From NCBI RefSeq assembly GCF_003334315.1, contig NZ_QOWR01000010.1: a stretch of DNA of 64,000 nucleotides, one strand, 5' to 3'. Below are positions 29,669-29,930 of this stretch, piece by piece. Under the pieces are notes generated by a model. The model did not search any database. It was given only the letters and a program-made list of their open reading frames with translations, and was not told the DNA's origin. Numbering within the stretch: the stretch's first letter is position 1; every line of letters starts with the position of its first letter. The stretch is from Escherichia coli. Lineage in GTDB: Bacteria; Pseudomonadota; Gammaproteobacteria; Enterobacterales; Enterobacteriaceae. Made by a program: the position numbers and the translations under genes.

Positions 29669-29930
29669 AGGCCTGATAAGACGCGGCAAGCGTCGCATCA
29701 GGCATTGATGTCGGATGCGGCGTAAACGCCTTATCCGACCTACAAAATCACGCTAAATCAGGCTATTGCGCTGTCTGGCGTAGGCCTGATAAGACGCGTT
29801 AAGCGTCGCATCAGGCGTTGATGTCGGATGCGGCATAAACGCCTTATCCGACCTACAAAATCACGCTAAATCAGGCTATTGCGCTGTCTGGCGTAGGCCT
29901 GATAAGACGCACCAGCGTCGCATCAGGCAT
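29669..29930. repeat. BIME cluster with tandemly duplicated 113-bp unit
   Basis: ggcctgataagacgc...gtcgcatcaggc...gtcggatgcggc.taaacgccttatccgacctacaaaatcacgctaaatcaggctattgcgctgtctggcgta occurs at 29669 and 29782, with a third partial copy at 29895. Confidence 0.9.

Follow-up and report, generated by a model that had tools for sequence, protein, structure and literature searches.

REP321, the 113-bp tandem REP array between yjcO and gltP, varies from zero to nine units in Escherichia coli

Between the convergent genes yjcO and gltP of E. coli lies a tandem repeat built of REP sequences. What kind of element is this repeat, how does it vary, and what could it do to the two genes that it separates? 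These questions were addressed in the window, which is the whole 64-kb stretch of DNA that was analyzed. The flanking genes were placed with the list of open reading frames and with the RefSeq annotation of E. coli strain HS30-1, which matches the region at 100% by megablast. yjcO, encoding a Sel1-repeat protein, lies at 28976-29665 on the + strand, and gltP, encoding the glutamate/aspartate:proton symporter, lies at 29969-31282 on the - strand. The convergent arrangement described in an earlier note on this DNA is borne out by both sources. The array is extragenic, and all of it sits inside the 303-bp spacer between the stop codons of the two genes. The TAA stop codon of yjcO is at 29663-29665, and the first REP stem begins 5 nt beyond it.

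Anatomy and class of the array

Tandem Repeats Finder reports a period of 113 over positions 29668-29930 of the window, with 2.3 copies, 94% matches and a score of 477. In a separate seed-and-extend repeat search, 29668-29780 and 29781-29893 were 96% identical, and an in-register third copy at 29894-29930 corresponded to the first ~37 nt of the 113-bp unit. The tandem periodicity claimed by the earlier note is therefore present by two routes; the starts that it gave (29669, 29782 and 29895) are shifted by one base, a difference of phase only. Since the yjcO-gltP array recurs with other unit numbers in complete E. coli genomes, it is not an assembly artifact. At a score of at least 100, only one other tandem array was detected in the 64-kb window, at 1-320 with a period of 100. 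This is a second tandem BIME array, with 3.2 copies and cut by the window edge, and it is REP325, the naRNA1-6 type locus.

Read on the + strand, each unit consists of an inverted Z2 REP, a 6-nt spacer, a Y REP with a CTAC end, and a 36-nt linker that leads to the GTAG of the next Z2. REP orientation alternates along the array, Z2(-)/Y(+)/Z2(-)/Y(+)/Z2(-), with the 6-nt and 36-nt linkers taking turns between the REPs. In unit 1, the Z2-type REP (29668-29703, - strand), which has a GTAG-type tail at its left end, was located by the Rfam naRNA4 alignment, the REP-tail scan and its hairpin in the fold. It is followed by the head-to-head spacer ATTGAT (29704-29709), which is S-like, a putative S; the linker between the two hairpins of the naRNA4 model is longer by 7 nt. 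The Y-type REP with its CTAC tail (29710-29743, + strand; Rfam alignment and REP-tail scan) is the variant GTCGGA...TCCGAC, compared with the usual form GCCGGA...TCCGGC. The unit ends with the linker (29744-29779, + strand), which spans 36 nt from the CTAC of Y to the GTAG of the next Z2 and is assigned to the L type by its alignment and by the length and position of the BIME-1 L linker.

Unit 2 (29781-29893), delimited by the repeat search and by sequence, has the same parts in the same order: Z2 at 29781-29816, spacer at 29817-29822, Y at 29823-29856 and L-type linker at 29857-29892. The two units differ in both REP loops and in the spacer, which occurs as ATTGAT or GTTGAT in the 113-bp units. 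The array is closed by a terminal Z2 REP (29894-29930, - strand), located in the same way as unit 2, which is what the earlier note had called a partial third copy. A REP-tail scan allowing up to two mismatches found five REPs at 29667-29908. The typing of these REPs rests on the Rfam naRNA4 model RF02564, which has a Y-linker-Z2 structure. The Z2 REPs of the array have the longer stem-loop, GACGC-loop-GCGTC, and not the Z1 form of the yjeI and yjeJ BIME-1 elements.

The spacer folds far better than shuffled sequences on both strands (z = -11.5 and -10.4). Covariation in the stems was examined in 22 distinct units, taken from 10 E. coli alleles and four other Escherichia lineages, and no excess over shuffles was found. 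In this alignment, 96% of the cells are paired and there is one double change. Because the units are 93% identical, the covariation test is uninformative about the REP stems. RNAfold also drew a third hairpin, within the linker. Substitutions in this hairpin mostly break its pairing and show no covariation, and we do not claim it.

In the published classification, BIME-1 combines z1 and y in a single copy with a long L linker, often with an IHF site, and BIME-2 combines z2 and y, is repeated in tandem and has a short S linker together with s/l/r flanks (Ton-Hoang et al. 2012, PMC3333891). An 'atypical' BIME is a chimera of BIME-1 and BIME-2 and is also found in multiple copies (Ton-Hoang et al. 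2012). The array has the general features of a BIME, which are REP palindromes with GTAG/CTAC tails that alternate with linkers. It has the Y and Z2 composition and the tandem, variable copies of BIME-2, and it lacks the set of S plus s/l/r linkers. Of the features of BIME-1, it lacks the Y and Z1 composition and the single copy, and it has the long L linker with, at the level of sequence, an IHF site.

The linker was compared with those of canonical K-12 BIME-1 elements, namely the yjeI and yjeJ spacers, the rnr-rlmB spacer and alr-tyrB. Their linkers measure 35-36 nt from the CTAC of Y to the GTAG of Z1, and the 36-nt array linker occupies the same position. Aligned with the rnr-rlmB L linker (ATAATCACGCAAATTCAATATATTGCAG...), the array linker scores 8 (z = 4.4, 1 of 5000 shuffles), which is inside the range of -2 to 10 that the L linkers score against each other. 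The IHF core falls at linker positions 13-25 in both the array linker and the rnr-rlmB L linker. Judged by these alignments, the 36-nt linker is L-type (BIME-1-like) and not locus-specific filler. A 52-nt linker query over E. coli genomes gave matches at the yjcO-gltP locus only, its weaker matches included, in a search that is blind to L-linker similarity of ~60%. Since BIME-2-like REPs and iteration are joined to a BIME-1 L-type linker, the unit Z2-S-Y-L is an atypical BIME, in which Z2, an S-like spacer, Y and an L-type linker are iterated.

Each unit contains a full match to the IHF consensus WATCARNNNNTTR in its linker, at 29756-29768 on the + strand in unit 1 (core AATCAGGCTATTG) and at 29869-29881 in unit 2. 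The whole window has 11 such matches, compared with 3.84 +/- 1.98 expected. By this pattern match, the binding of IHF to the L-type linker of each unit is plausible, and there is probably one IHF site per unit on the DNA. In E. coli O157:H7 strain 2159, from which one allele was read, a 12-bp deletion in the linker takes out the IHF-like core, so the site is not conserved and is not under strict constraint. This allele is a ready negative control, given by nature, for the binding of IHF. The text of two IHF ChIP papers does not mention REP/BIME or the yjcO-gltP locus.

Unit number in K-12, in E. coli and in other genera

The array is REP321 of K-12, which is catalogued at MG1655 4295836-4296435 as 'Convergent' between yjcO and gltP (Harris et al. 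2026, bioRxiv 10.64898/2026.03.23.713779). The locus, the flanking genes and the 113-bp unit are shared, and units 1 and 2 of the window agree with the K-12 units 'A' and 'B' at every base. The two differ in unit number, with 2.3 copies in the window compared with 5.3 in MG1655 and 4.3 in W3110 (judged from its 530-bp spacer), BW2952 and DH1. They also differ in the loop of the terminal Z2, which is CACCAG in the window and GGCAAG in K-12. A partial BIME from the gltP-yjcO spacer of MG1655, 'B319', is a substrate of TnpA-REP (RAYT), which has four cleavage sites in the B319 linker (Ton-Hoang et al. 2012). The element is thus already known: it is catalogued, descriptions of its class go back to the early 1990s, and a portion of the locus has served as a biochemical substrate. 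What is added here is the L-type linker, the range of 0-9 units, the one-unit difference between the K-12 references, the age of the element across Escherichia and the finding that no gyrase cleavage is recorded for it.

The K-12 reference genomes MG1655 and W3110 are one 113-bp unit apart at the array. The spacer is 641 bp in MG1655 (NC_000913.3, 4295795-4296435) and 530 bp in W3110 (NC_007779.1, 4299385-4299914). The unit order is A* B B A' B in MG1655, whose first unit is without 2 nt in the Y loop, and A B A' B in BW2952. The four-unit insert length was also found in DH1, in a W3110 derivative and in one MG1655 resequencing, and BW2952 matches by sequence. This one-unit difference is absent from the MG1655/W3110 difference table summarized in PMC2072959. 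An assembly error as the origin of the five-unit form of MG1655 was considered and rejected, since adjacent B units occur at 99% identity or more in 908 records. These records include BL21, E. coli C and several MG1655 assemblies.

The comparison of unit number across E. coli genomes that the earlier note had proposed was run with a query of the two 700-nt flanks only. The flanks matched 5422 of 5426 complete E. coli genomes, and insert lengths were read in an evenly spaced sample of 59 of the flank-matched genomes. In 23 of these 59, the insert is 39-40 bp and holds a single Z2 REP and no full unit. This zero-unit allele is exactly the terminal Z2 REP of the window, including its loop CACCAG. 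One unit (153 bp) was found in one genome, two units as in the window (264-266 bp) in six, three units (378-379 bp) in two and four units (491-492 bp) in 12. Four genomes, which are all the O157:H7 genomes in the sample, have a 139-bp insert, the O157:H7 allele with one unit and a 12-bp linker deletion. There is also a second allele series, in which the first Z2 is truncated and the terminal Z2 is absent. It has a 109-bp base (three genomes) and forms with about three (six genomes), five (one) and six (one) additional units, corresponding to one, four, six and seven units.

The linker itself was found in 2809 of the 5426 genomes, at 1-9 places per genome with a median of 4, and 48% of the 5426 are missing a full-length linker. 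With 0-4 units and the second series in the 59 genomes and the linker at up to nine places, the copy-number polymorphism claimed by the earlier note is strong, and the range among E. coli strains is zero to nine units. Its core reading, a tandem REP-containing BIME unit of variable copy number, was right.

Units would be gained and lost singly, through misalignment of near-identical 113-bp repeats by replication slippage or unequal exchange. The single-unit differences between close relatives and the higher-order patterns of A and B units fit repeat misalignment. Gain and loss may also be aided by the REP-associated transposase, which cuts this linker in vitro.

Two further observations were made during the search for alleles. 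In E. coli MB53 (NZ_CP073939.1, about 4118730-4120200), the IS110-family element IS621 lies inside the array. It is inserted in the CCTAC tail of a Y REP (...CCGACCT-IS621-CTAC..., with CT on both sides), and yjcO and gltP are intact. This insertion fits the REP-targeting of IS621. Among plasmid-labelled records, the linker was matched at 6 places, the yjcO/gltP flanks at 5 and a two-unit query at 11. These matches may be misassigned chromosomal fragments or real transfers.

How old is the array? yjcO and gltP are convergent in almost all of 43 outgroup loci, drawn from Escherichia, Salmonella, Citrobacter, Kluyvera, Raoultella and other enterobacteria. E. albertii has Z2-S-Y-linker-Z2-hairpin, which is one unit. 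The count is ~2 units in E. whittamii, five in Escherichia sp. E1V33 and zero in Escherichia sp. MOD1-EC7003, and the range over E. albertii, E. whittamii and the cryptic Escherichia lineages is 0-5 units. In Salmonella and most Citrobacter, the spacer has just one hairpin, which belongs to a REP type of their own, and the linker is wholly absent. The presence of the unit in E. albertii and its absence from Salmonella and Citrobacter make it Escherichia-specific and older than the split between E. coli and E. albertii. The lack of a linker in the Salmonella and Citrobacter spacers also means that the linker arrived with the BIME and was not ancestral spacer. We rejected the idea of a captured ancestral spacer that was later amplified for this reason and because the linker aligns with BIME-1 L linkers.

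Other genera have arrays of their own in this spacer. In Citrobacter amalonaticus AUH, an unrelated 49-bp REP unit is present in eight copies of the same orientation, and C. amalonaticus ku-bf3 has about four copies of it. Raoultella planticola has a different long repeat in a yjcO-gltP spacer of 476 bp. These independent arrays mark the yjcO-gltP spacer as a recurrent landing site.

Transcripts, gyrase and the possible roles of the array

Between the array and gltP, at 29938-29961, lies a G+C hairpin that is not a REP (TTGCCGGG-loop-CCCGGCAA), recognized by its sequence, its folds and its conservation. It begins 7 nt after the gltP stop codon on the - strand and is conserved in every Escherichia allele examined. 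TCTTCAATTATT follows it on the + strand. From these sequence features, the hairpin is likely to be an intrinsic terminator for yjcO after the array. A simple terminator scan detected no canonical intrinsic terminator in the spacer, this hairpin included.

On the opposite side of the array, there is published evidence for Rho. An in-vitro Rho-binding peak on the gltP-sense strand, which is antisense to the 3' end of yjcO, lies at MG1655 4296428-4296596, where it overlaps the yjcO-proximal edge of REP321 by 5-7 nt and also overlaps 'BST' 4296368-4296906 (Harris et al. 2026). The window equivalent of the peak, with coordinates transferred by arithmetic from MG1655, is about 29505-29673 on the - strand. 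We take the 'BST' entry at the array edge to be a bicyclomycin-sensitive transcript, after Peters et al. 2012. From this arrangement, transcripts reading through from gltP would pass the array, and Rho would halt them on entry into yjcO antisense.

Some effects of REPs on transcripts have been described at other loci. REP325 was found in experiments to be a partly Rho-dependent terminator and to protect upstream mRNA (Harris et al. 2026). In the same study, convergent pairs with a REP had higher expression genome-wide, REP-terminated mRNAs showed no general difference in half-life, and both genes flanking REP321 were expressed in MG1655, with a DESeq baseMean of 2311 for gltP and 606 for yjcO (Harris et al. 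2026). In the literature, we found no experiment on the effect of the array on yjcO or gltP RNA. Reportedly, in work by Liang, Rudd and Deutscher (Mol Cell 2015), ribosomes stall at termination and less protein is made when a REP is within ~15 nt of the stop codon; the first REP stem of the array, 5 nt from the yjcO stop, falls within that distance.

We consider it very probable that the array is best explained as REP321, an atypical BIME of Z2-spacer-Y-L units with a 113-bp period and a closing Z2, which would vary in number by repeat misalignment and be shared as a 3' UTR by both genes, with any effect dispensable. By analogy with REP325 and from the published Rho data, the array would be transcribed from both sides as the common 3' UTR of yjcO and gltP. 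On the same analogy, the stable hairpins of the array could hinder 3' exonucleases and slow read-through, and the remark in the earlier note that such arrays stabilize upstream mRNA 3' ends would apply here by that analogy with REP325. Rho would terminate read-through in the gltP sense where the array borders yjcO, and transcripts from yjcO would run through the array and stop at the hairpin at 29938-29961. Since ~40% of the sampled E. coli genomes are without full units, the effect would be a dispensable modulation and not an essential function.

It is possible, at a clearly lower probability, that the array has no host function and is a selfish or neutral repeat drifting in copy number. In favor of this, there are zero full units in 23 of the 59 genomes and no full-length linker in 48% of the larger set. 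Drift would also agree with unit numbers that vary even among K-12 laboratory lines, with the unrelated arrays in the same spacer of C. amalonaticus and Raoultella, and with IS621 inside the MB53 array. However, every Escherichia allele examined retains the conserved hairpin and one or more REPs by the stop codons, and the array edge has a Rho-binding peak and an overlapping 'BST'. The genome-wide correlation of REPs between convergent genes with higher expression also speaks against pure drift. The neutral account overlaps with the preferred one, which already calls the effect dispensable.

A role in DNA topology can be judged from published gyrase maps. If the array were a plain BIME-2 array, it could be a strong DNA-gyrase site that absorbs positive supercoils between the convergent genes, and the earlier note had described such arrays as sites of gyrase binding. 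The composition of Y and Z2, the tandem units as in BIME-2 and the convergence of yjcO and gltP agree with this. Published maps show an enrichment of gyrase cleavage in BIME-2 elements, chiefly within their Y REPs, with only 'a subset' of BIME-2 being cleaved (Sutormin et al. 2019, PMC6379681). The long linker of the array, however, is L-type and is not a BIME-2 flanking motif. In Topo-seq Table DS3, the W3110 interval 4300548-4301034 (486 bp) is filed under 'BIMEs1', where the neighboring entries among those listed are 87-129 bp and mostly ~97 bp (Sutormin et al. 2019). The interval has 0/0/0/0 cleavage sites (ciprofloxacin, rifampicin+ciprofloxacin, microcin B17 and oxolinic acid), a count for which near-identical repeats may map poorly with short reads (Sutormin et al. 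2019). We identify this interval with the array by its length (486 bp = 4.3 x 113) and its position, the row having no gene label. The match in position assumes an offset of ~4.7 kb, estimated partly from MG1655 gene coordinates.

The filing under 'BIMEs1' is an independent sign of the L-type, atypical nature of this BIME. Elsewhere in the same data, the tldD-yhdP BIME-2 has 35/13/3/10 cleavage sites in the four conditions, and a 582-bp BIMEs2 entry whose position and length suit REP325 has 0/2/0/0 (Sutormin et al. 2019). A gyrase site at this locus is therefore improbable in our view, and the remark in the earlier note is unsupported for this array, with no sites in four conditions in the matching W3110 interval, subject to the same mappability caveat. 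An array with BIME-2 REPs, a BIME-1 IHF-type linker and no published gyrase cleavage indicates that a tandem BIME does not automatically mean a gyrase site.

The array could also be taken for a set of naRNA4 (CssrE) sRNA genes, whose processed two-hairpin RNAs bind HU and condense the nucleoid. On the - strand, both full units are matched over the whole length of RF02564 (naRNA4/CssrE), with 79.0 and 71.4 bits compared with a gathering score of 59.5; a third match, at 49 bits, is under that score. The - strand is the gltP-sense strand, so read-through could make the RNA. However, the model also matches REP325 at window 44-320 (107-111 bits), just upstream of yjdN, and an isolated Z2-Y pair at window 40385-40462, a single BIME with the head-to-head geometry of the array (76.9 bits, 40388-40459, - strand). 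RF02564 therefore recognizes any Y-Z2 pair, and its matches at the array mean 'BIME with Y and Z2' and not an sRNA gene. The inter-hairpin linker of the array also has the 7-nt deletion relative to the model. The nucleoid role is itself disputed, as REP325 and naRNA4 gave no measurable nucleoid compaction and HU, naRNA4 and cruciform DNA formed no stable ternary complex (Harris et al. 2026). We regard an sRNA gene array as very improbable, and since the naRNA4 model fires on ordinary Y-Z2 pairs, such matches should not be read as sRNA genes.

Other elements of these kinds are present in the window. A tail-to-tail REP pair with a 13-nt linker lies at 8120-8164, where one partner resembles the Y of REP321 in being a GTCGGA/TCCGAC variant. 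A degenerate REP pair lies at 15030-15045. At the Rfam gathering level, a SECIS_2 element (27147-27201, 87 bits) was found inside fdhF, just upstream of yjcO, and the Hfq-binding sRNA sraL was found at 47698-47838 (153 bits).

What could the variation in unit number mean? One speculative idea, to which we give little chance, is that unit number is a heritable, fast-mutating dial, in which each unit adds two 3'-UTR hairpins and one predicted IHF site. If this were true, yjcO and gltP expression would be measurably different among strains with 0, 2, 5 and 9 units, whether through the stability of the mRNAs, through Rho-dependent read-through or through ribosomes stalling near the stop codon of yjcO. 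Selection, and not neutrality, would then account for the repeated gain and loss of units, which is seen even between laboratory lines of K-12. The array is in any case a ready-made allelic series for the effects of REP arrays on flanking mRNAs. As a natural variable-number repeat of 0-9 units, it is a possible typing marker, and short-read assemblies can collapse there.

REP321 beside BIME-1, BIME-2 and REP325

REP321 resembles BIME-1 (RIB/RIP, Y-L-Z1) in that its Y REP leads into a 36-nt L-family linker whose IHF core has the BIME-1 offset. It differs in that the partner REP is Z2 and not Z1, and in that the array is iterated, whereas BIME-1 elements are single copies of ~97 bp. The IHF site in the L of BIME-1 has as its counterpart in the array a predicted IHF site.

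The likeness to BIME-2 arrays such as REP325 and tldD-yhdP lies in the tandem pairs of Y and Z2, their strain-variable number and their match to the naRNA4 model. Differences in the number of tandem BIMEs from strain to strain are described for the family in general (Ton-Hoang et al. 2012). The recorded gyrase cleavage also differs, with 0 sites in the interval matched to REP321 compared with 2 in REP325 and 35 in tldD-yhdP. naRNA4/CssrE comes from REP325 (window 1-320), and the yjcO-gltP array is a different locus. The geometry of the two is also different: REP325 (yjdM-yjdN; naRNA1-6) repeats every 100 bp, its head-to-head linker being 13 nt and its tail-to-tail linker 17 nt, whereas the array between yjcO and gltP has a 113-bp period with linkers of 6 nt and 36 nt.
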